Of a DNA stretch of 53,998 bases, positions 652-53,998 are shown in pieces (positions within the stretch are counted from its first letter, which is position 1; the number at the start of each line of letters is the position of its first letter). The stretch is from Escherichia phage vB_EcoM_DE15. The position numbers and the translations under genes are program-made. The notes below the pieces were generated by a model. That model was not told where the DNA came from. It saw only the letters and a list, made by a program, of their open reading frames with translations, and did no database searches. The stretch lies in sequence record NC_079184.1. One strand, written 5' to 3'.

Positions 652-2592
652 ATGACTACTATCACCACTCAAACTATCAAATCCGTTGTTCCTGCTATCA
701 CTGCTCTGGTATACCGTGCCAAAGAGAAACAGAACTATATGCAGCCTCAGACTTGTGCTATTGCTGCCTTAGCCATCTTCAAGATGATGACGTCTTTCAC
801 TCGTGATGACGTTGTCCCTGCCATCGCGATGGTTGAACTGGCTTCTGCTTCTATTGCTGATGCCAACCGTTATAACAACGATTTGAAAGCAATGCACTAT
901 GTTGACCCAGCTATCAACCTCATTGGTCTGGCTAAGCACTTTGGCTTCATCACCATGAACGAAGACAAGTCATTCCAACAGACTGACACATGGGTTGAAC
1001 TGGTTACAACCAAAGACACCGCAGTGCCATTCACTGAGCGTGTTACATCTGAATCTCGTCGCAAGCCTTTCGTTAAAGGTGGCAAAGTTAAGCCATCCAA
1101 AACTCTGAAAGCTGCAATCGAATTCCTGCAAGATACTGAGTACCATGTGGAGACTGAGATGGTTCGCATCATCCAGTCCATGCTTGAGCAACGTACTTAT
1201 GGTGGCTTGCAGATGCCAGAAGCAATCCAGACTGAACTTCATGTTTGGAACAATGCTGTAGCAATGATGAATCAGGACACACTGTATTCTGACTACTTTG
1301 CTGACAACCGTGGTCGCCTGTATCATGTAGCATGTGCTGGTCCTAACCCACAATCTTCTGACTTTGCTCGTTGCTTGTATTCTCACAATGTTGAGAACAT
1401 CGTTAAGAAGTTTAACGAAGATGGTTCTACTACCATTGCATACAATATGTTCATGGCAGAACTGGAAGACATTTCCGGTGGTGAATGGTGCACTGCCAAG
1501 CGTTTGACTTATGTTGCTCAGAATCCAGCTGGTTCACTTGCTCGCATGATGAACATGCCTAAAGCTGAACGTCCTTCCAAGCCATTCACTTATGTTCGTC
1601 TGGCTCTGGATTGGTTCAAGTTTGAGACTACAGGTGAATGCGATTCTCGTGTAGGCTTTGGCTTAGATGCTAAATGTTCTGGTACTCAATATCTGGCATT
1701 CATTGCTGGCAATATGGAAATGGCTCGTGCAACAGGTCTGGTTGATTCTGAGACTAAAGCATCTGACCCATACCAGTTGAGTCTTCGTGAACTGTTGAAG
1801 CTGTTGGACAAGTCTTCAATGAAACCATCTCCTGAAATCATGGATGAATTCTTGAATCCGAAAGCTGGTCGTAAGTTTATCAAAACTCCGTACATGGCTA
1901 TTCAATATGGTGGTGGTAAAGCTGCACTAACTGGTTCATCTGACTTCATCAGCTACATGACGGAAGCTCTCCAGATTCCTATGGAGAAAGCTGAGGCATT
2001 TGCTGAACTGTGTGTAGAAGCAATCCATAACGCATTGGGTGCTAAGATTAACATGTTCATTGAGAAAGCTGCTGAGGCTGCATACAACCGTTGTGTTGAA
2101 CTCAACAAAGAGTACATCACATATCGTCACACTGATGGTCAGGTTGTAATGAAGCCTTGCTTCCCATCTCGTGAAATCTGTGAGGCATTCAGCATTCGTG
2201 TTGACAGCCAAACTCGTGTTATCTTTGGTCAGATTCAGGAGAATAAGCCTTGGACCATTCGTGAATCCAACCCAACTAAAGAAGAATTCAAGCGTACTTT
2301 CGTTGTTAACTACATTCAAGGTATTGACGCATTGGTTGCTCGTACTGTTGCAGTTAAAGCTAAAGAAGCTGGTCTTCGTGGTTTCACTTCAATCCACGAT
2401 TGTTTCCGTTGCTGTTTGGCAGATGCTCCACGTATGATGGAAGTTATTCGTGCAGCATATGTTGAAATCTTTGTAACCAACAATCAATTCGAGAATCTGT
2501 CTAAGCAACTTGGTGGCATTCAGATGTATCATGAGAACATCGTAACTGAAGAACTCCTGATGTCTGAACACGCTTACTACTTCTGTCAATAA
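652..2592 (+). CDS. Single-subunit (T7-type) DNA-dependent RNA polymerase, compact 646-aa form
   Basis: Motif A GLDAKCSGTQY (T7 DGSCSGIQH), motif B RKFIKTPYMAIQYGG (T7 RxxxKxxxxxxYG), motif C IHDCF (T7 HDSFG); only ~130 aa precede the palm region. Confidence 0.8.
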   Translation: MTTITTQTIKSVVPAITALVYRAKEKQNYMQPQTCAIAALAIFKMMTSFTRDDVVPAIAMVELASASIADANRYNNDLKAMHYVDPAINLIGLAKHFGFITMNEDKSFQQTDTWVELVTTKDTAVPFTERVTSESRRKPFVKGGKVKPSKTLKAAIEFLQDTEYHVETEMVRIIQSMLEQRTYGGLQMPEAIQTELHVWNNAVAMMNQDTLYSDYFADNRGRLYHVACAGPNPQSSDFARCLYSHNVENIVKKFNEDGSTTIAYNMFMAELEDISGGEWCTAKRLTYVAQNPAGSLARMMNMPKAERPSKPFTYVRLALDWFKFETTGECDSRVGFGLDAKCSGTQYLAFIAGNMEMARATGLVDSETKASDPYQLSLRELLKLLDKSSMKPSPEIMDEFLNPKAGRKFIKTPYMAIQYGGGKAALTGSSDFISYMTEALQIPMEKAEAFAELCVEAIHNALGAKINMFIEKAAEAAYNRCVELNKEYITYRHTDGQVVMKPCFPSREICEAFSIRVDSQTRVIFGQIQENKPWTIRESNPTKEEFKRTFVVNYIQGIDALVARTVAVKAKEAGLRGFTSIHDCFRCCLADAPRMMEVIRAAYVEIFVTNNQFENLSKQLGGIQMYHENIVTEELLMSEHAYYFCQ

Positions 2593-3964: not shown

Positions 3965-4213
3965 ATGGATACTGTGACTAAAGCTGCTTACTTTAAAGAC
4001 TTGTCAGATGGTCAAATATTTTCTATTCGCTCTGTAAAGTGGATTAAAGTAAATGAATCAGACAAGTACAATGCTGTAAAGTTCTTTGATTCAAGCAAGG
4101 CATGTACTTTTAGTGACAATATTGTTGTAAATATTGAAGTCGAATTAGAGCCAGATGATTCAAATGATGAAATCATTCTGCGTAAAACTGTTGGATACAC
4201 TAAAGGATTCTGA
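3965..4213 (+). CDS. Hypothetical early protein (82 aa)
   Basis: ORF with GGGAG RBS upstream of ATG. Confidence 0.5.
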   Translation: MDTVTKAAYFKDLSDGQIFSIRSVKWIKVNESDKYNAVKFFDSSKACTFSDNIVVNIEVELEPDDSNDEIILRKTVGYTKGF

Positions 4214-4214
4214 A

Positions 4215-4445
4215 ATGGATTATGCACTGTATCACTATATAAGCAGGACTGGGCTTGTTCGTCACGCTTTGGTCAACATTAAAACCAAAGACATACTGTT
4301 GGCTGGCTTGTCAATTTACGAAAACAATTTAGTATGGAAACGTGCTGTACATCCTGGACATGTTTGGGATGTAATTCAGTCTGACAAATACCACAAAATT
4401 GTTGCAATGGCTAACCGACCAGAGCACATCAAGCCGAGGAAATAA
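4215..4445 (+). CDS. Hypothetical early protein (76 aa; ORF track gives 4155 start)
   Basis: ATG at 4215 directly after upstream stop; tight gene packing. Confidence 0.4.
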   Translation: MDYALYHYISRTGLVRHALVNIKTKDILLAGLSIYENNLVWKRAVHPGHVWDVIQSDKYHKIVAMANRPEHIKPRK

Positions 4446-4447
4446 TC

Positions 4448-4636
4448 ATGGACTTCATCGTCTACTTTAAGTTAAATGGTGTAGAGCAAAGTTTGTACTT
4501 CAATTCTTTACTTCGTTTGCAACAGTGGGCGGAGAAGTTTGTTGGTTACGACTTTGATTACATCAATGCATGTACAACTGACGAACATGAGGAAATCGTG
4601 TTCAGTTCTTTAAATCAAATTCTGGAGGCCAAGTGA
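4448..4636 (+). CDS. Hypothetical early protein (62 aa)
   Basis: ORF, ATG start, packed with neighbours. Confidence 0.45.
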   Translation: MDFIVYFKLNGVEQSLYFNSLLRLQQWAEKFVGYDFDYINACTTDEHEEIVFSSLNQILEAK

Positions 4637-4824
4637 AGAGCAAGATTCTTAAGTCAGCAATGTATAATCTGCATTTCGGACTCAGCTACCCTACAGTAAA
4701 GCGTCAAGAGAAACGATTTTCACGACTACCTGCACGGACTGTTGCCAAAGAGGTTAAGAAGGCGAGCGAGATTCTAAAGTTCGTTATGTGGAAACGTGTT
4801 GTATTAACTCCGGAGACCAAATGA
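4633..4824 (+). CDS. Hypothetical early protein (63 aa, GTG start)
   Basis: ORF in track; start uncertain. Confidence 0.35.
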   Translation: MKSKILKSAMYNLHFGLSYPTVKRQEKRFSRLPARTVAKEVKKASEILKFVMWKRVVLTPETK

Positions 4825-5087
4825 GCCAGTTTAAGTTAAAAGCAGATTTAATCGAGTTGGCCTCTTATGAAGAGAAAATCGAATTCATCCAAGAACGTTT
4901 GGTTGTCAACTACGGTGGTTGGATTGATGTTTCTACAAATGAGTTGGTGGTTCGTATCAAGGAAGAGTTTGGTATTGAAATCACTAACAAACAGTTTTAT
5001 GAAGATGTTCTCACAGATAAAGTTATTCGAGGCATCACAAACAATTTCATGTCCAGCTTTATGGAAGGTGGGCCACGTTTAAAATGA
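4821..5087 (+). CDS. Hypothetical early protein (88 aa; ORF track gives 4788 start)
   Basis: ATG 4821 in frame of ORF 4788..5087. Confidence 0.4.
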   Translation: MSQFKLKADLIELASYEEKIEFIQERLVVNYGGWIDVSTNELVVRIKEEFGIEITNKQFYEDVLTDKVIRGITNNFMSSFMEGGPRLK

Positions 5088-5248
5088 AGAAGCTCAAATA
5101 TATGACCAAAACGGTTACATATATGGCTATGTATGGTGCTTCAAAGCGTAAGGCTAAGAAATTGGCAAGAGCTGCAAATCCTCGTATGCCAGCACGTAAA
5201 GTGGCCAAAATCGTTAATCTGGTATTTGGCAATTGGAGTATTAAGTGA
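5084..5248 (+). CDS. Small basic protein (54 aa)
   Basis: ATGA overlap with upstream stop; translation MKKLKYMTKTVTYMAMYGASKRKAKKLARAANPRMPARKVAKIVNLVFGNWSIK. Confidence 0.3.
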   Translation: MKKLKYMTKTVTYMAMYGASKRKAKKLARAANPRMPARKVAKIVNLVFGNWSIK

Positions 5249-5427
5249 ATTATGAGAATCTGCTATTAAGAACTAGTGGTGGGATGCTCATACTGACCAC
5301 ACCTGAGTTTCATTTCACAAGGGTATACTCCGAAGAATTTAAATCCTGGTTCCCAGCAAATCTAAAAACACGATGGCTTAAAGATTGTGTGCCTGTTGGG
5401 AAGAATGTAAAGCTAAGGAGTAAATAA
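5245..5427 (+). CDS. Hypothetical protein (60 aa, GTG start)
   Basis: ORF in track only. Confidence 0.25.
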   Translation: MNYENLLLRTSGGMLILTTPEFHFTRVYSEEFKSWFPANLKTRWLKDCVPVGKNVKLRSK

Positions 5428-7865: not shown

Positions 7866-8306
7866 ATGCCAATCGTATTCGAAGGTAAGGCCAACGTATT
7901 TACTGTGGATGCACAAACTGTAACTTGTACTGTGAATGTTGTTGGTGTAATGGGTGCTGGTGTTGCAAAAGAGTACAAACGTCGCTACCCAGAGGCATTT
8001 AAGAACTACAGAACTGCGTGTAATCGTGGGTTCAAAACTGGACAATTGTTGCTGCAACGTCTTAATGATGGGCGTCTTGGACTATGTTTCCCAACAAAGC
8101 AACATTGGCAAAATCCTTCTCAACTTGAATGGATTGAGCAAGGTCTTATTAAGCTGGTGGAAACTTACAAGCGGTGTGGAATCACTTCACTTGCAATAAC
8201 CCCACTTGGTTGTGCAAATGGGCAGTTGGATTATGCTACTCAAGTTCGTCCACTTATGCTTAAATATTTAAATCAGTTGGATATTCCAGTATTCATCTGC
8301 AAATGA
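7866..8306 (+). CDS. Macro-domain protein (ADP-ribose binding/hydrolase-like)
   Basis: NVVGVMGAGVAKEY resembles the macro N-x(5)-G-G-G-V loop; SLAITPLGCANGQLD resembles the second glycine loop. Confidence 0.55.
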   Translation: MPIVFEGKANVFTVDAQTVTCTVNVVGVMGAGVAKEYKRRYPEAFKNYRTACNRGFKTGQLLLQRLNDGRLGLCFPTKQHWQNPSQLEWIEQGLIKLVETYKRCGITSLAITPLGCANGQLDYATQVRPLMLKYLNQLDIPVFICK

Positions 8307-16614: not shown

Positions 16615-16738
16615 TTACTGCATGATTGCACAACCAATCTATTTGGATGTTGCAGAAGTGAAAGTTTTATCACGCGAAACCAAAACACAGATTTTAGTCC
16701 ACAATGAAACGTGGGCACAAAAGTGTTCGAAACGATGA
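16538..16738 (+). CDS. Lipoprotein in alternate frame overlapping the previous gene, o-spanin-like
   Basis: MFRKKCLAVLIAMSIVSC: signal peptide with lipobox-like IVSC. Confidence 0.3.
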   Translation: MFRKKCLAVLIAMSIVSCSQSGFVSDYCMIAQPIYLDVAEVKVLSRETKTQILVHNETWAQKCSKR

Positions 16739-17181
16739 AATTATCAAAGCAGTATATTTACGACAGAGTTTCTAAGCGTCAGGAACCTACTTGGCAAGTA
16801 GACACAGATGGGTATTTATCTGCTTCGATTACTTTGCCAGAAGGCACTTTCAACGTAAGAAAACACATCTTGGTGTTCTACAAAACAAACGGATACATTC
16901 CAGATTTTGTGGACCATAAAGACAACAACAAATTAAACAATGCTCCAGACAACTTGCGAGAAGCAAGCAAGTGCCAGAATCAACAGAACTCCAAACGACC
17001 AAAGAATAACTCTTCTGGCGTTAAGGGTGTGTCACTAACCAAACACGGTAAATGGCAAGTTCGTATTATGGCAAATGGTGTGAAGCATTACGGTGGATTG
17101 TTTGACTCTCTCGAAGATGCCAAACAACACATAGAATCATTACGATTGAAATTACATAGTGATTTTGCTCGTAGTGTGTAG
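16735..17181 (+). CDS. HNH homing endonuclease with AP2-like DNA-binding domain
   Basis: DHKDNNKLNNAPDNLREASKCQNQQN (HNH) and GVKGVSLTKHGKWQVRIMANGVKHYGGLF (AP2-like). Confidence 0.65.
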   Translation: MKLSKQYIYDRVSKRQEPTWQVDTDGYLSASITLPEGTFNVRKHILVFYKTNGYIPDFVDHKDNNKLNNAPDNLREASKCQNQQNSKRPKNNSSGVKGVSLTKHGKWQVRIMANGVKHYGGLFDSLEDAKQHIESLRLKLHSDFARSV

Positions 17182-18375: not shown

Positions 18376-19026
18376 ATGATTACTGCAACACTCGTTGACC
18401 ACATGGGCAGCGACCTCACAACTGTTAATGCTGCACGAGTTTCCTATGGTGCAGAGTCGCATGAAATATCTTTACGTGACGAGAAGCTGATTGAGTTTCT
18501 TGCAAAGCATAAGCACATTACGCCGTTTCGCCACGCACAGGTAACATTGCGTTGCAAAGCTCCAATCTTCATTGCACGTCAGCTTGGCAAACATCAAACT
18601 GGCTTTAGTTGGAATGAGGTTAGCCGTCGTTACAAAGATGGTGAAGCAATCTCTATTGAATGCTTTGTACCAGATGTTGTATTTGGTCGTCCTGAAAAGT
18701 TGATGACTCAGACTGCACAACCGTTGCCGCAAGATTTTGCTGACGATATTCATTATCGCATGGAAAGCCATAACAAGGCTTGCATCGCTGAGTATGAAAC
18801 GTTAATTGGTTTGGGGATTGCCCCAGAGCAAGCTCGCATGGTTCTTCCACAATCCATGACGACTGAATGGATTTGGACTGGCTCACTTTATGGCTGGGCA
18901 TCTATGTATAATCAACGTTCCTCCGAACATGCGCAATATGAAGTTCGCTTGTTTGCGGAAGAAGTGAATAAAATCATGTCAGAACTGTTCCCAATTTGTT
19001 GGAAGGCTCTGACCAACCAGGAATAA
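18376..19026 (+). CDS. thyX: ThyX-like flavin-dependent thymidylate synthase homolog with altered RHR motif
   Basis: AARVSYG, PFRHA, SRRY align to ThyX signature regions; canonical RHR position reads KHQ. Confidence 0.5.
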   Translation: MITATLVDHMGSDLTTVNAARVSYGAESHEISLRDEKLIEFLAKHKHITPFRHAQVTLRCKAPIFIARQLGKHQTGFSWNEVSRRYKDGEAISIECFVPDVVFGRPEKLMTQTAQPLPQDFADDIHYRMESHNKACIAEYETLIGLGIAPEQARMVLPQSMTTEWIWTGSLYGWASMYNQRSSEHAQYEVRLFAEEVNKIMSELFPICWKALTNQE

Positions 19027-26889: not shown

Positions 26890-27495
26890 ATGTCTTGTAT
26901 GACTCAAGTTGTTGCTGTAAAGCGAGTGCATCCTAATGCGAAATTACCTGTGTACGCTACTGCTGGCGCTGCTGCTGCTGACGTTTGCACTATCTCCAAC
27001 AGCACTGTTGTTATCAATCCCGGCTGCTCTGCTGTTTTCGATACTGGCCTCCAGTTCGAGGTTCCAATTGGATACGAACTCAAAGTGCATAGCCGTTCTG
27101 GTCATGGCTTTAAGTCTGGTATTCGCCTGGCAAACTGTACAGGGATTCTGGACTCCGATTATCGTGGTAATCTTATGGTTAAGCTGCACAACGATTCGGA
27201 CACAGCCTTTGTGGTTCAGCCAGGTGAACGTATTTGTCAGGTGCAAGTTAGTAAAGCTACTCAACACCATTTCGTCGAAGTTGACCGCCTGAATGCAACT
27301 GGTCGTGGTGAAGGTGGATTTGGTTCTACTGGACGTGTAGAAGTTGGTGAGCATGGCAACAGTCGTGTAGCACCTGGCAGCTACGACCCAAGTATTACTG
27401 TGCCGTCGAATGGTTCACACTCACACATCATCACTGGCCCAAGTGGAGTCTACGACGTAGGAACTCCAACCCACAACCCCAACATTACCAAGTAA
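26890..27495 (+). CDS. dut: dUTPase with ~50-aa C-terminal extension
   Basis: GILDSDYRGNLMV (motif III) and RGEGGFGSTG (motif V). Confidence 0.75.
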   Translation: MSCMTQVVAVKRVHPNAKLPVYATAGAAAADVCTISNSTVVINPGCSAVFDTGLQFEVPIGYELKVHSRSGHGFKSGIRLANCTGILDSDYRGNLMVKLHNDSDTAFVVQPGERICQVQVSKATQHHFVEVDRLNATGRGEGGFGSTGRVEVGEHGNSRVAPGSYDPSITVPSNGSHSHIITGPSGVYDVGTPTHNPNITK

Positions 27496-39162: not shown

Positions 39163-39338
39163 TATCCCTGTTCCCCGACATAAAATATTTTCTGCATCGT
39201 CCTATAATCGAAGATAGTTCTCTCTGCAAGTTACGTGAATTGCAAGATGGAACCTATTCGATTATGGACTTATTGCTATTCCACGACATTCTCGATTTGC
39301 GTAAGAAACTCGAACCAGTAGATGAAGACAATGGCTAA
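39060..39338 (+). CDS. -1 frameshift extension of tail assembly chaperone (GT-like product)
   Basis: -1 frame opens exactly at the slippery heptamer (stop TGA 39057-39059) and runs 92 codons to 39338. Confidence 0.5.
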   Translation, partial: FFQARARNQRTETIGGGGSIQAGRAEEFESGDSLVSLFPDIKYFLHRPIIEDSSLCKLRELQDGTYSIMDLLLFHDILDLRKKLEPVDEDNG

Positions 39339-42300
39339 TCAAAAAGATTTAATGAAGTTGAGCGTTAATGAGTTAATTGCATTAGGCTCTCAAAGCGGTC
39401 TGACTTTCCATGCTGGTATGAAGAAGTCGCACATGGTTCAACAACTTAGTGCGAGCGCTGCTTCGGGATGGCTGGATACAAATGCAGAATTAATGGGTGG
39501 GTCGTTCGAAGATGACAGTTTGATTACTGAATCTTTGGGTGACTCTTCCATGATTTCAGACGCTGCCCACATTGCACAAGTGCTTTCAAGTGCTGGCTAC
39601 ACAGAAGCATTTCATGCAGCAATGAATGGCCCATCACACCATGTAGAAGCTGTTCACGCATACATGGAAAGGCTTGGCGTTAGCACAGATGATGTGTGGA
39701 TGCACATGCCAAAGCCAAATCCGAACCTACCGCAAGGTAGCTTCAACATGCTTAATGCCTATATGCGAGATACTTTGCAAGGGCATCAAGATATTATGCC
39801 GGAAATCCCAGGCCATTATGCTGGGGATATTATGGCTGAATACTCCACCAACCGTGGAAACATTGCTGACTCCTACAACTACATGGCCCACATGTATGTT
39901 GACCGTGAGCAATATAGCAATCATGAACAATACGCAAGAGACATTAGTCGAGTTGCCAAACGTCTGGAACGAGAGTTACCCTCAGCCTTTAAGGAAGTTG
40001 GGTATACATCCGCATCTAATGTAGGAAATAAATCGGCCCCACATATTTCTTACATGGATGCACTCCCTCAGATTGGTTCTCCTTCGATTGTTTCTGGCAT
40101 TGCACATCCTCGTGCACCTCTTAACGCATCTGGACTTCCTCTTGGTTCTTATGGTTCTGGCATAAATCCAGAATACTCCCTCACTGCCTCGCTAACTGGT
40201 GGCACTGGTTGGAGTGAACCAAGCAAGGCTTTATATTCCTCTATTAGCGAAGCTGTTAAATCTGCTGCCAAAGTTTATTCTGGTTCCAAAGGGATGATGA
40301 ATACTCGTCACGAAGTATCTGACCGTGACATGATTATGGACAGTGCAACTCGCTACACAGATTTGGAAGAAGCCAGAAGCGGATACGAAAACCTTCGTTC
40401 TGAACTTGCAGATGAACCAGCTTATTCTGCATCAAGTGTTCGAGCTATTCTCGAAAACACTTACGATAGAATGGATGCCGAACCTGTTCGCATTCCAAAG
40501 ATGAAGGGAGCTTCACAGCGAGTCGATAAAGATTCACTGTCAACATCTACAGATTTTACAGCACAACTTGGAGAGGCCACCAATTGGAACTCTGCAAGAA
40601 TGCGTCGTGAGGAACTTGCGATTGCAAATATGGATAGTGCTGGATTCCGTGATGTATCAGACTATGGTACAGGACGTTCCGAGTCCCCCGTCCGATTCCA
40701 TGACTTAGAACAGGGCAGCCAAGAGTGGCTGGACTTCCGTAAAAATTATGACATAACTGGCTCAACTGTTGGAACTTTCTTAGGAAACAACCCATACACC
40801 CGACCTTGGGCTGGTATGATTGATAAGATTGGCTTATCTCGTAGTAAAGAGCACAGCGATTTCACCAAAAAGATGTTCGCTGATGGTCACAGGACGGAAG
40901 AAGAAGCACGCGCTCGTGTTGGTAAGGAATTTGGATTCGATATCAAACAAATTGGCGCTATAACAAATGACAACTATCCCGCCTTCATGTATTCTCCTGA
41001 TGGTCTTATTGGGGATGATGCCATTTGGGAGCACAAGAATCCGCAAAGGGCTGGTAAGTTTGCTGACCTTCTTAAAGGCGACCATCCAGACTACATGGAC
41101 CAAATTCAATTTGGTATGCACGTTTCTGGCCGTTCTCGTGCTTTGTTCTCACAAACCATCAACGACGAAACACGTTCGCAGTGGATTGAGAAGGACGAAG
41201 GATGGTACGAAAGAAACCGAAATCGCCTTGATTCTGTGCTTGGCCGTCTTGATGCTGGGCGAGAGTTTGTTAGAAACAATGCTGGATTAGAACGAGAAGA
41301 GCTGATTGCTGGTGCAAGAAGTGCAATGACTGGTGATGGAATCTGGAAAGATATTCGTCAAAGGTCTACTCGTGGCTATTCTGCTGCTGCTGGTACTCCA
41401 GAAGACCCGTTTATTGGTTCACGTTCTTCGTACAATCCAGAAGCATCCTACTCTGACTACAAGCCAAACTTTGTAATGCACGAGCAAAACTTTCCGGCAA
41501 CTACTGGAAATGGTGACACCGGAAATGACTCGATGGCATTGTCTGTTAAGAAAGGTATTCTTGCTGCTCAGGAAGAAAACAGGCAGAAAGGTATTGGTGC
41601 AGATGCAGACTTTGATGGCAAAGCCGATTCAATGGGCTGGAACCGTGAAAGATTTGATGCTGCCAATGGCGGTGGATATTCTGGCGGTGGTGGTGGTCGT
41701 GGCGGCAACTTCACAAGTGGTGGCAACTACTATGATGACTACGGTCGCATGGGTGGTTCGTTAGCTGCTGGCATTGCTGGTGGCAGTATTGGTTCAGCAA
41801 CCAACGGAGTTATGCAAGCATTGATGGCAACTCCTGCTGGACGTATGGCTGCTGTAGGCATTGGTGCTATTCAGATTGGCAATGAAGCTGCTGAATACAT
41901 GAATGACTTTATCGGCAACTCGCTTGATGCTGGTGTGATAAATCCTAATGAATATTCTTCCATGTCGCAAGGCTTGGAGATGTTAGGACTCAACTCACAA
42001 CAAGCGGCACGTCTGAATCAAACCACACATAGTGCCTATAACACCATGCTTAACGGCGACCCCAGCGCCGCTGTGAACATCGTTCGCGGCAGTAGGGGAT
42101 TGCTCACCATAGGTGATATTCGTGCGACAGGCGGCGACCCTGTGGCCCTGGCTCGCATCATGCAGGAAAGGGGCAAGGAGCGTGGCTGGAGTCAGGCCCG
42201 TATCGCAGGTGCTGCCGAAATGGCTGGCCTACAGGGTATGGCGCGAGCATACGACCGCACGGAATACAGCCATGAGCAAGCTGGCTCGGTGGTAGAAGCG

Positions 42301-43047
42301 GGTAGAAACTCCGACTTTGCCGAAGGTATGGCCCAATCGGAAATGTTGCAGGGAAGCCGCGCACGGATGCTGCCGAGCTACAACGTGCCACAAAGTGTCC
42401 TATCTAATGGCGCTTCTGTATTTGAGGCTGGCAGTGATGCACTTGACAGTGTACGCACTGGATTCAACAGGACACGAGAGTTTGCTGGAAGTGTTTACGA
42501 CTTTATTGCTCAGGAAGAATCTGGCGGTCGTGAATACAACAAAGATGGTTCTCGTGTAACAAGTCCAACTGGCGCTCGTGGGATAATGCAGATTCTCCCT
42601 TCGACTGCCCGTGACCCAGGATTTGGAATCAGGCCGTCTGATGGAACTCCAGAAGATGATGCACGAGTTGGTCGTGAATACTATGACGCAATGTACAAGC
42701 GTTATGGCGACCACGAGAAAGCAATGGCTGCTTACACCGATGGTCCTGGCACTGTTGACAAAGCTGTTGATAAGAATGGGTTGGATTGGCTTACTGCTGT
42801 TCCTGCACAGGCACAGAATCGCGTCAAAGCATTCCGTGAATGGTCCAAGTCTTCTCAATCTTTGGAAGAAGGTGCTACAGGGTTTACTCGTAATGGAATG
42901 TCATACGGTCAAACCCAAACTGTTGTTAATGTTAAGATTGATGCTAAGGTCAACAACCAGACTGCTTCTGCTACAGTTGCAATTCCTGGTGGTCAGACTG
43001 TGACTCAACAAATGAACATGAACAACGGTGCGCAACAAAGACGTTAA
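39322..43047 (+). CDS. Tape measure protein (1241 aa) with internal YqaJ-like PD-(D/E)xK nuclease domain and C-terminal lytic transglycosylase (SLT) domain
   Basis: QGSQEWLDFRKNYDITGSTVGTFLG and YSPDGLIGDDAIWEHKNP (YqaJ-like); EESGGREY...GARGIMQILPSTA (SLT); Gly-rich hydrophobic stretch. Confidence 0.65.
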   Translation: MKTMANQKDLMKLSVNELIALGSQSGLTFHAGMKKSHMVQQLSASAASGWLDTNAELMGGSFEDDSLITESLGDSSMISDAAHIAQVLSSAGYTEAFHAAMNGPSHHVEAVHAYMERLGVSTDDVWMHMPKPNPNLPQGSFNMLNAYMRDTLQGHQDIMPEIPGHYAGDIMAEYSTNRGNIADSYNYMAHMYVDREQYSNHEQYARDISRVAKRLERELPSAFKEVGYTSASNVGNKSAPHISYMDALPQIGSPSIVSGIAHPRAPLNASGLPLGSYGSGINPEYSLTASLTGGTGWSEPSKALYSSISEAVKSAAKVYSGSKGMMNTRHEVSDRDMIMDSATRYTDLEEARSGYENLRSELADEPAYSASSVRAILENTYDRMDAEPVRIPKMKGASQRVDKDSLSTSTDFTAQLGEATNWNSARMRREELAIANMDSAGFRDVSDYGTGRSESPVRFHDLEQGSQEWLDFRKNYDITGSTVGTFLGNNPYTRPWAGMIDKIGLSRSKEHSDFTKKMFADGHRTEEEARARVGKEFGFDIKQIGAITNDNYPAFMYSPDGLIGDDAIWEHKNPQRAGKFADLLKGDHPDYMDQIQFGMHVSGRSRALFSQTINDETRSQWIEKDEGWYERNRNRLDSVLGRLDAGREFVRNNAGLEREELIAGARSAMTGDGIWKDIRQRSTRGYSAAAGTPEDPFIGSRSSYNPEASYSDYKPNFVMHEQNFPATTGNGDTGNDSMALSVKKGILAAQEENRQKGIGADADFDGKADSMGWNRERFDAANGGGYSGGGGGRGGNFTSGGNYYDDYGRMGGSLAAGIAGGSIGSATNGVMQALMATPAGRMAAVGIGAIQIGNEAAEYMNDFIGNSLDAGVINPNEYSSMSQGLEMLGLNSQQAARLNQTTHSAYNTMLNGDPSAAVNIVRGSRGLLTIGDIRATGGDPVALARIMQERGKERGWSQARIAGAAEMAGLQGMARAYDRTEYSHEQAGSVVEAGRNSDFAEGMAQSEMLQGSRARMLPSYNVPQSVLSNGASVFEAGSDALDSVRTGFNRTREFAGSVYDFIAQEESGGREYNKDGSRVTSPTGARGIMQILPSTARDPGFGIRPSDGTPEDDARVGREYYDAMYKRYGDHEKAMAAYTDGPGTVDKAVDKNGLDWLTAVPAQAQNRVKAFREWSKSSQSLEEGATGFTRNGMSYGQTQTVVNVKIDAKVNNQTASATVAIPGGQTVTQQMNMNNGAQQRR

Positions 43048-51984: not shown

Positions 51985-52326
51985 ATGGAACGATTATCCA
52001 TTCAGATGTTTCTGGACCTCATGCACCAATATGGCGTATGGCACGGCTTGCTCGCTGGTCTGACGGCTTTAATCCGTGGGGCATATGAGAGTGAGGGTTT
52101 AAGCAAGGCGTTGCTAGATGCGACGCTGTGCAGCTTAATCGGCCTGTTTGCATTTCAGGTCGCTGGCACATTTGAGACTTTCACGACTAACGTCACTATG
52201 CAGTTAGTTTTGGCTATCGTGATTGGTGTCATCGGTGCTAACCTCATTATCACAACTGTCAGAGAAAGTTTCTCTGGCGCAATCAAACAACTTAATCCTT
52301 TGACGTGGTTCAAGAAGGCACGATGA
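51985..52326 (+). CDS. Holin (putative, 3 TM segments)
   Basis: Three hydrophobic stretches in 113 aa; directly upstream of lysin. Confidence 0.5.
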   Translation: MERLSIQMFLDLMHQYGVWHGLLAGLTALIRGAYESEGLSKALLDATLCSLIGLFAFQVAGTFETFTTNVTMQLVLAIVIGVIGANLIITTVRESFSGAIKQLNPLTWFKKAR

Positions 52327-52343
52327 AATGATAAGGAACTCGG

Positions 52344-52898
52344 ATGCTATCATTCAAAGTTCTTGCACTTCTGACAGCTTTAGTTCACATCAACGCCCCA
52401 GCTTCGGTTGGGGCAGTGAATTCTGCTATTACAGATTTTGCAAGTCATTCCTATTTAAATGGAAGTCTGAAATTATCTTCTTCACAACGCAAAGAGCTAG
52501 AATGCTACACTAAAGTAATCTGGTACGAAGCTCGCGGAGAAGACAAACATGGAAAGATTCTGGTAGCTAATGTCGTCCGTAATAGAACAGAGTTCGGGAA
52601 GCCATTCGCTAACACCGTTTGTAATGTTGTCTATCAACGCAATCAATTTGCATGGACACGAGAAGCAAAGAAGAAGAATGCTCAATGGAAGCATGTAGCA
52701 AAGATTAATTATGCCACAGAACAACAACAAGTTCTGGACACCATTAATGTTGCAATCTCTTTTGTACTATTTAATCAACCCTCTGTCACCAAAGCAACTC
52801 ACTTTTGTACAGCATCGGAGAAGTGCAACTTCAAGAATGTCAAAGGTCTGGGACGTTATGGTGGCCATAAATTCTATGAGTATCTAGGAAATCTGTAA
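52344..52898 (+). CDS. SleB-type cell wall hydrolase with N-terminal signal/SAR-like segment (endolysin candidate)
   Basis: [21 protein letters not shown] matches the SleB/Hydrolase_2 core; N-terminal [25 protein letters not shown]. Confidence 0.65.
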
Positions 52899-53998
52899 TG
52901 GCTTACACTACCTTTTCACAAACCAAGAATAACCAACTATTAGAACCAATGTTCTTTGGTCAGAACGTTAACGTTGCTCGATATGACCAACAGAAGTACA
53001 GCGTCTTCGAGAAGTTAATCGAGAAGCAGTTATCTTTCTTTTGGCGACCTGAAGAGGTTGATGTTAGCCAGGACCGAATTGACTATGCTGGTCTGCCTGA
53101 ATGCGAGAAGCACATCTTTACCAGCAATTTACGATACCAAATCCTGCTTGATTCCATTCAGGGACGTGGACCAACCACAGTTTTGCTGCCAATTGTGAGC
53201 ATTCCTGAACTGGAAACTTGGATTGAAACTTGGTCTTTCTCAGAGACAATTCACTCCCGTTCTTACACGCATATTATTCGTAATATCGTGACAGACCCAA
53301 GTGTAATTTTCGATGAAATTGTGGAGAATGAGCACATTAAAATGCGTGCAATCGGCATCTCCCAATATTATGACGAGCTTCAACATCTAACTTCCATGTG
53401 GCATCTGCATGAAGATAAAGTTTCCCTTCGTGAGCTTAAGAAGAAGCTGTATTTATGCCTCATGTCCATCAATGCACTAGAAGCAATCCGCTTTTATGTC
53501 AGCTTTGCTTGCTCATTTGCCTTCGCTGAACGCAAGTTGATGGAAGGAAATGCCAAGATTATTCGCTTAATTGCTCGTGATGAAGCACTCCATTTGACCG
53601 GAACTCAACACATGCTGAACCTTCTTGCAAGTGGTGTTGATGACCCAGAAATGGCAGAAATTGCTAAAGAATGCCGTCAAGAATGCCAACTCATGTTCGA
53701 AAATGTGGCCCAACAAGAGAAAGATTGGGCTGATTATTTGTTCAAAGATGGCTCAATGATTGGCTTAAATAAGCAAATTCTGTGCGGATATGTGGAATAT
53801 ATCACGAATATTCGTATGCAAGCAGTTGGATTGGATGCTCCATTCAAAGGTGCTACTAACCCGATTCCTTGGATTAACGCATGGTTGAATTCGGATGCTG
53901 TACAGGTTGCTCCACAAGAAACGGAGATTAGTTCGTACCTTGTCGGGCAGATTGATTCCGAAGTTGACACCAATGCTCTGGGCGGATTTGAGCTTTAA
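52898..53998 (+). CDS. nrdB: Class Ia ribonucleotide reductase beta subunit (NrdB), host-like
   Basis: [11 protein letters not shown]...[18 protein letters not shown]...[18 protein letters not shown] strongly resembles enterobacterial NrdB as recalled. Confidence 0.85.

Follow-up and report, generated by a model that had tools for sequence, protein, structure and literature searches.

A host-like ribonucleotide reductase small subunit encoded without a large subunit in an Escherichia phage, and its predicted pairing with host NrdA

Results

The DNA analysed here (the window) is a 53,998-nt stretch from Escherichia phage vB_EcoM_DE15 (NC_079184.1), and our subject is its last gene, nrdB, which encodes the small (beta, R2) subunit of a class Ia ribonucleotide reductase (RNR). 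The window is a whole Carltongylesvirus genome (Chaseviridae, Cleopatravirinae; the phiEcoM-GJ1/ST32 group) with its end joined to its start. It carries an R2 without a large subunit (alpha, R1) of any class, as do its relatives. The nrdB gene follows the endolysin gene so closely that its ATG (52898-52900) shares bases with the endolysin stop (TAATG), and its own stop, TAA, is the exact end of the window. The Shine-Dalgarno-like sequence in front of it (Table 1) is also the one given for ORF79 of phage ST32 (PMC6266442). Upstream of nrdB, a search for a sigma-70 promoter gave no signal above shuffle expectation. Overall, this auxiliary metabolic gene is an ordinary one, previously annotated in a known phage genus: phiEcoM-GJ1 gp75 and ST32 ORF79 are the same gene, placed last after the endolysin gene, with protein identities of 91-99.7%.

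Table 1. Positions of nrdB, its parts, its neighbors, and other genes of nucleotide supply in the window
Feature	Position	Strand	Basis and remarks
nrdB, class Ia RNR small (beta, R2) subunit	52898..53998	+	Complete, 366 aa; open reading frame and homology
Shine-Dalgarno-like AGGAAAT	52886..52892	+	Direct sequence reading; 5 nt before the nrdB ATG
Deletion junction (H171-E-D173 / K174-V-S176)	53408..53425	+	10 residues missing between nt 53416 and 53417
C-terminal tail inserting into NrdA	53891..53995	+	Residues 332-366, equivalent to E. coli S341-L375; alignment and contact tables
Holin	51985..52326	+	First lysis-cassette gene, upstream of nrdB; annotated holin at the syntenic position in relatives
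Endolysin (Hydrolase_2 / SleB-like)	52344..52898	+	PF07486, E = 2.5e-15; same annotation in relatives; stop 52896-52898
Conserved stem-loop	8..52	+	Starts 9 nt past the nrdB stop in the joined genome
Single-subunit (T7-like) RNA polymerase	652..2592	+	PF00940; follows nrdB as the next gene once the ends are joined
ThyX (flavin-dependent thymidylate synthase)	18376..19026	+	PF02511, E = 3.5e-43; deoxynucleoside triphosphate (dNTP) supply
dUTPase	26890..27495	+	PF00692, E = 6.5e-23; dNTP supply

The nrdB product is a complete class Ia NrdB of the gammaproteobacterial type. E. coli NrdB is its full-length match among Protein Data Bank (PDB) chains (phmmer, E = 1.9e-199), it scores 697.8 bits against NF006576, the NCBIfam equivalog for class Ia beta (cut-off 346), and it matches PF00268 (Pfam, E = 1.8e-48). 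In a pairwise alignment, 299 of 366 residues (81.7%) are identical to NrdB of E. coli strain ML35, in keeping with the high similarity to enterobacterial class Ia R2 that an earlier note on this DNA had suggested. E. coli R2 chains are the top PDB matches by fold as well as by sequence, which places the protein in the ferritin-like R2 fold. The fold match comes from an AlphaFold2 (AF2) model of medium confidence, for which the best Foldseek hits, at a template modeling (TM) score of ~0.70, are these chains. The mean predicted local distance difference test (pLDDT) score of this model is 63, and we used it for the fold match and for one local call of a helix-linker-helix only.

All six metal ligands (D84, E115, H118, E204, E238, and H241) are identical to those of E. 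coli NrdB, and they are kept in every phage homologue compared. The alignment also places the radical tyrosine, Y122, in the phage protein, together with the residues of radical transfer by proton-coupled electron transfer (PCET), W48, E52, D237, E350, and Y356. F208, F212, and I234 are likewise present. At 14 positions that are invariant across 21 bacterial homologues the phage residue is altered; these include N131T, N343A, D369A, and Q306G.

No candidate for a large subunit was found in the genome. When the window was searched with E. coli NrdA and with YfaE (tblastn), nothing scored better than E = 1.2. Eight other open reading frames (ORFs) of at least 400 aa were scanned with Pfam; none has an RNR large-subunit domain, and all could be assigned other functions (RNA polymerase, primase-helicase, family A DNA polymerase, terminase, portal, DUF2213, a sheath-like DUF3383 protein, and a 1241-aa tail protein). 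The same scan of 20 mid-size ORFs detected ThyX and dUTPase (Table 1), but neither a redoxin nor a ferredoxin and no part of an RNR. The possibility of a hidden R1 from another class was rejected, as neither a Ribonuc_red_lgC nor an NRDD domain occurs in the eight large and 20 mid-size ORFs. These searches bear out the earlier suggestion that no nrdA candidate exists among the large ORFs. The phage nrdB therefore does not lie in an nrdAB operon, which is a feature of genomic context and not of the protein.

The joined genome ends also account for what follows nrdB. More than 20 deposited records match the nrdB DNA at 95-97% identity (protein identity up to 99.7%), and in several of these relatives the nrdB stop is again the end of the record. 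In relatives deposited with other start points (Bp10, flopper, and Pel53), bases 1-120 of the window come directly after the nrdB stop, and the RNA polymerase gene lies ~650-700 bp downstream of nrdB. An nrdA beyond the window end, which the earlier note had named as one finding that would overturn its reading, is ruled out by the joined ends and by the RNA polymerase gene that comes next. The stem-loop behind nrdB (Table 1) has a folding energy of -23.8 kcal/mol (z = -5.0; 0 of 200 shuffles fold equally well) and contains a terminator-like match at 23-38. Its sequence is also found 3' of nrdB in Bp10, flopper, Pel53, Mangalitsa, and PYps3T, and it is likely the transcript end, or a 3' stabilizer, of the late operon. 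Since the end joins the start, and the stem-loop and then the RNA polymerase gene follow, nrdB closes a holin-endolysin-nrdB block with no nrdA downstream.

The AT-rich spacer that separates nrdB from the RNA polymerase gene (1-651) has short internal repeats, and the annotation of phage flopper marks repeat_region features at the syntenic place. The spacer is probably an early promoter or genome-end region.

The absence of nrdA from phages of this group has been recorded before. The ST32 genome paper names a beta subunit only (PMC6266442), and Dwivedi et al. entered phiEcoM-GJ1 as "nrdB" only in 2013 (PMC3653736), so the orphan status of the gene is not new. They listed nrdB alone in two phages, described the functionality of such incomplete sets as unknown, and apparently had as their second case Campylobacter phage Cpt10, which has an interrupted nrdA remnant.

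Conservation of the surface that meets NrdA was evaluated with the beta contact residues of the 2.6-Å cryo-electron microscopy structure of the E. coli alpha2beta2 complex (PMC11551348, SI Tables S9-S12), scored in an alignment of nine phage and 21 bacterial NrdB sequences. Twenty-nine of the 32 beta residues in direct contact with alpha are identical to E. coli; the three that differ, N131T, N343A, and D368N, are phage-specific states. Among water-bridged contact residues 14 of 15 are identical, and the exception, R57Q, is found in Vibrio too. The change rate is 9% at contact residues versus 18% over the whole protein. Together with the overall identity to E. coli NrdB, these counts describe a host-like R2 in which both the catalytic and the R1-binding residues are kept.

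The C-terminal tail that inserts into NrdA is full length, and 11 of its 13 direct-contact residues are identical to E. coli (N343A and D368N differ). From Y356 to T367 it is entirely as in E. coli, and the anchors L370, F373, and L375 are retained. The last 10 residues read as the earlier note gave them. Five of them differ from E. coli: N372G and Q374E occur in other bacteria, and D368N, D369A, and S371G are phage-specific. The "divergent extreme C-terminus" of the earlier note is thus an overstatement, given the retained anchors and the two terminal changes that bacteria share. A strongly divergent C-terminus was ruled out by comparison with the 21 bacterial homologues.

The most obvious difference from E. 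coli NrdB is internal. The alignment has a single gap, corresponding to approximately residues 172-181 of mature E. coli NrdB, and the deletion, previously put at about 10 aa, is precisely 10 residues. The missing residues lie between helices alphaD and alphaE, where the crystal structure of E. coli R2 has its only beta-hairpin. The AF2 model of the phage protein has a helix at 145-170, a short linker, and a helix at 177-210, and blocks over residues 161-190 average pLDDT 83-88. For a host-type NrdB, the single-sequence model was of no use (pLDDT 35), and its strands at 174-178 and 181-185 give a weak hint of the hairpin at most. The tables of alpha contacts for the active E. coli complex list no residue of the hairpin region, and no function for the hairpin is described in the literature found by our search.

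The length of this hairpin is constant in 118 other close homologues, almost all of them bacterial. Within the genus it is shortened by four residues in the GJ1/PYps/Pel53 clade (NrdB of 372 aa, with six more hairpin residues than the window protein), by seven in FXie-2024a (369 aa, three more), and by 10 in the ST32 clade (366 aa), which includes the window. The order of shortening agrees with the tree. The pattern of hairpin trimming is the only new element here.

A shortened hairpin is also found in Serratia jumbo phage PCH45 (MN334766.1), whose NrdB (positions 4001-5107 of the locus extracted from it, L012) is 82% identical to E. coli NrdB and 74% identical to the window protein. The PCH45 protein has its own deletion of eight residues in the same hairpin, with other boundaries. 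A tblastn search of its whole 212.8-kb genome with two NrdA queries identified no NrdA homologue (E <= 1). PCH45 is a second nrdB-only phage lineage, which acquired the gene independently: the two phages share a host-like NrdB, the lack of NrdA, and a shortened hairpin, but they differ in phage type and genomic context. The trimming of the same length-invariant hairpin in two independent nrdB-only lineages is suggestive, with two cases only. In Cronobacter phage vB_CsaP_009 nrdA adjoins nrdB, and the hairpin is full length.

Pantoea phage Survivor (PP885733.1) presents a further arrangement. At positions 3995-5379 of the locus extracted from it (L010), an nrdB of host-like type keeps the hairpin intact and lies directly in front of a gene for a YfaE-like ferredoxin, which is 64% identical to the YfaE of E. 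coli. There is no adjacent nrdA, and the first 50 kb of this 271-kb genome were inspected further. Survivor, PCH45, pEt-SU, and SXP01 are not among the phage records that have an NrdA at least 56% identical to that of E. coli.

Selection on the gene was evaluated in nine Carltongylesvirus nrdB genes. The ratio of nonsynonymous to synonymous divergence (dN/dS) is 0.007-0.11, with dS up to 0.78, which reflects strong purifying selection. The codon composition of nrdB is phage-like: its GC content is 0.425 and its GC content at third codon positions (GC3) 0.42, in a window of GC 0.441, versus a GC3 of 0.63 for E. coli nrdB. Across all 5426 complete E. coli genomes, the phage gene matches the host nrdB at only ~70% DNA identity, and dS between the two is saturated. 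In a neighbor-joining tree the phage clade falls outside both the sampled Enterobacterales and Vibrio, and protein identity to homologues from the two groups is flat, at 75-78%. Recent capture from E. coli is ruled out by the DNA identity, GC3, saturated dS, and tree position, and nrdB is instead an old acquisition. The description "host-like" in the earlier note holds at the protein level and should not be taken to imply a recent E. coli origin.

We found nrdB in all 40-odd Carltongylesvirus-type records matched. It is absent from the loci fetched from sister genera (Sabourvirus 4HA13, Faunusvirus, Suwonvirus PM1, and Loessnervirus Y2 and Mauresque), in which the spacer and then the RNA polymerase gene come straight after the endolysin gene. 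Thus, nrdB is an insertion particular to this genus, at a cargo position past the lysis genes.

An nrdB-like match besides the chromosomal copy was also seen in 202 E. coli plasmid records. These are probably SSU5-type phage-plasmids, which carry nrdA.

Discussion

The presence of a complete small subunit in a genome that encodes no large subunit raises the question of its partner. The best-supported and most plausible reading is that phage NrdB pairs with host NrdA. Specifically, we propose, with a probability of about 0.7, that active beta2 is made during infection and docks on host NrdA to form a hybrid RNR that sustains dNTPs. The observations that carry this proposal are the integrity of the gene, the conservation of cofactor, radical-transfer, and alpha-contact residues, the signature of purifying selection, and the lack of a phage R1. 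From these we infer that the hybrid forms, that it is active, and that it benefits the phage. The phage-like codon composition, the gene order in relatives with other start points, and the presence of phage ThyX and dUTPase also favor the proposal.

Under this proposal, phage nrdB would give rise to a catalytically competent beta2 with a diferric-tyrosyl radical cofactor, and this beta2 would dock on host alpha2 (NrdA). The resulting hybrid could add to, or replace, the host radical-generating subunit, so that production of deoxynucleoside diphosphates (dNDPs) and dNTPs would go on during phage replication, alongside the activities of phage ThyX and dUTPase. Such an enzyme would depend on the host for NrdA, for iron loading and YfaE, and for thioredoxin or glutaredoxin. 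Expression is presumably late, given the position of the gene behind the lysis genes.

The closest established precedent is the R2-only strategy of poxviruses. Most chordopoxviruses encode R2 alone, and vaccinia virus needs the hybrid complexes that its F4 forms with cellular R1 in order to replicate efficiently (PMC2900304). Like phage NrdB, the chordopoxvirus R2 is the sole virus-encoded subunit, resembles that of the host, and keeps a C-terminal R1-binding motif. However, the poxvirus system is eukaryotic and its acquisition unrelated, and the hybrid demonstrated there is a prediction for the phage. Phage T4, with NrdA and NrdB, and vB_CsaP_009, with adjacent nrdA and nrdB, also supply RNR capacity for their own replication, but they bring their own NrdA along. 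The vB_CsaP_009 NrdB, at 76% identity, falls in the same gammaproteobacterial-type subfamily. The E. coli enzyme itself (PDB 1MXR, 6W4X, and 9DB2) has the same fold, metal ligands, Y122, and PCET residues; the phage protein differs from it by the 10 missing hairpin residues, by the lack of nrdA or yfaE alongside, and by its place in a phage late operon.

Several points weigh against pairing with host NrdA. D369A replaces a residue that is invariant in the 21 sampled bacterial homologues, and this change and N131T, N343A, and D368N could weaken NrdA binding. The end of a late lysis operon is an unusual place for a gene that supports replication. Sister genera of the subfamily lack nrdB, which implies that any benefit is not essential. 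For phages of this genus, we found no biochemical or genetic test of a hybrid enzyme in the searchable literature.

A related alternative is that the same hybrid forms with host NrdA but is adapted for changed regulation. For example, it might escape the inactive alpha4beta4 ring induced by dATP, or some other host control, and so raise dNTP pools above the host set point. The interface that holds this ring together is small (~525 Å2), and single substitutions on the alpha side abolish the ring (PMC11447812). In the dATP-inhibited ring, I297 of beta packs on I47 of alpha (PMC11447812). The phage-specific changes D302Q and Q306G adjoin I297 and N300, beta residues that touch the cone domain; they affect positions that are acidic (D/E) or invariant in sampled bacteria and, being just downstream in sequence, are presumably near I297 on the surface. 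The hairpin also fits this idea, in that it is trimmed stepwise in the genus and independently in PCH45 while 118 homologues keep its length. However, I297, the one beta contact of the ring for which we found documentation, is unchanged, as are S295, M296, and N300. No hairpin residue is among the alpha contacts of the active complex, and the trimming could be mere relaxed constraint on a surface hairpin. We consider this alternative unlikely.

A broader form of the idea is that orphan phage NrdBs are not plain spare parts but are specifically adapted to hijack host NrdA, with hairpin loss and D302Q and Q306G altering control through escape either from dATP feedback, exerted by the alpha4beta4 ring, or from some host factor recognizing the hairpin. 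This is a tentative suggestion to which we give only a slim chance. If it were true, one small gene would deregulate host dNTP supply.

Considerably less probable than either is that nrdB rides along as moron-like passenger cargo downstream of the lysis genes and does little or nothing, or that its product has a moonlighting role outside RNR. The restriction of the gene to one genus in the subfamily would fit, as would its location, typical of cargo, between the endolysin gene and the end of the transcript. Yet the low dN/dS is maintained across lineages with substantial synonymous divergence, the gene is kept in every Carltongylesvirus-type record matched, and the pattern of conservation is that of an RNR subunit, NrdA-contact residues included.

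The suggestion in the earlier note that the protein might act as a competitor fits poorly. As a dominant-negative subunit it would occupy host NrdA without turnover and shut down host dNTP synthesis; the NrdA-binding tail is kept, and a radical-dead poxvirus R2, vaccinia F4, is indeed dominant-negative (PMC2900304). Here, however, the radical tyrosine, the iron ligands, and the whole PCET pathway are kept under strong purifying selection, and a phage with no alternative RNR still needs dNTPs for a genome of ~54 kb. We regard such a role as very improbable. Least probable of all is a highly divergent phage-encoded large subunit that escaped recognition: several ORFs in the window have no Pfam match, but the scanned ORFs of at least 400 aa are all otherwise assigned, so none is both long enough and unassigned, and tblastn with NrdA gave no match.

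If the predicted hybrid with host NrdA is real, the phage would be the bacterial-virus counterpart of the poxvirus R2-only strategy, and the radical-generating subunit, not the catalytic one, would limit dNTP supply in infected E. coli. Independently of this, the natural hairpin series (-4, -7, and -10, and -8 in PCH45) offers ready-made variants in a protein 82% identical to that of the best-studied RNR. These could be used to probe an element of E. coli beta2 for which we found no described function.

Additional observations

Other genes of the window have features of interest. In the 1241-aa tail protein (39322-43047), a YqaJ-like nuclease/recombinase domain (residues 468-604) occurs together with an SLT lytic transglycosylase domain (1061-1152). 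An ORF in the early region (7866-8306) has a Macro domain (PF01661, E = 1.5e-08) and may bind or remove ADP-ribose. In the replication region, an ORF at 16711-17181 encodes an HNH_3 endonuclease (PF13392, E = 3.4e-13) that may be a homing endonuclease.

Two public records deserve comment. PP952070.1, deposited as "Staphylococcus phage Pel53" with Staphylococcus hyicus as host, is of the Carltongylesvirus type and 85-87% identical at the nucleotide level to this E. coli phage, and the host label looks doubtful. One bacterial NrdB from NCBI (P0004 in our set, 494 aa) contains repeated PVSYTHLDVYKRQ insertions, which are the translation of a Nextera adapter and represent an assembly artifact in the public record.

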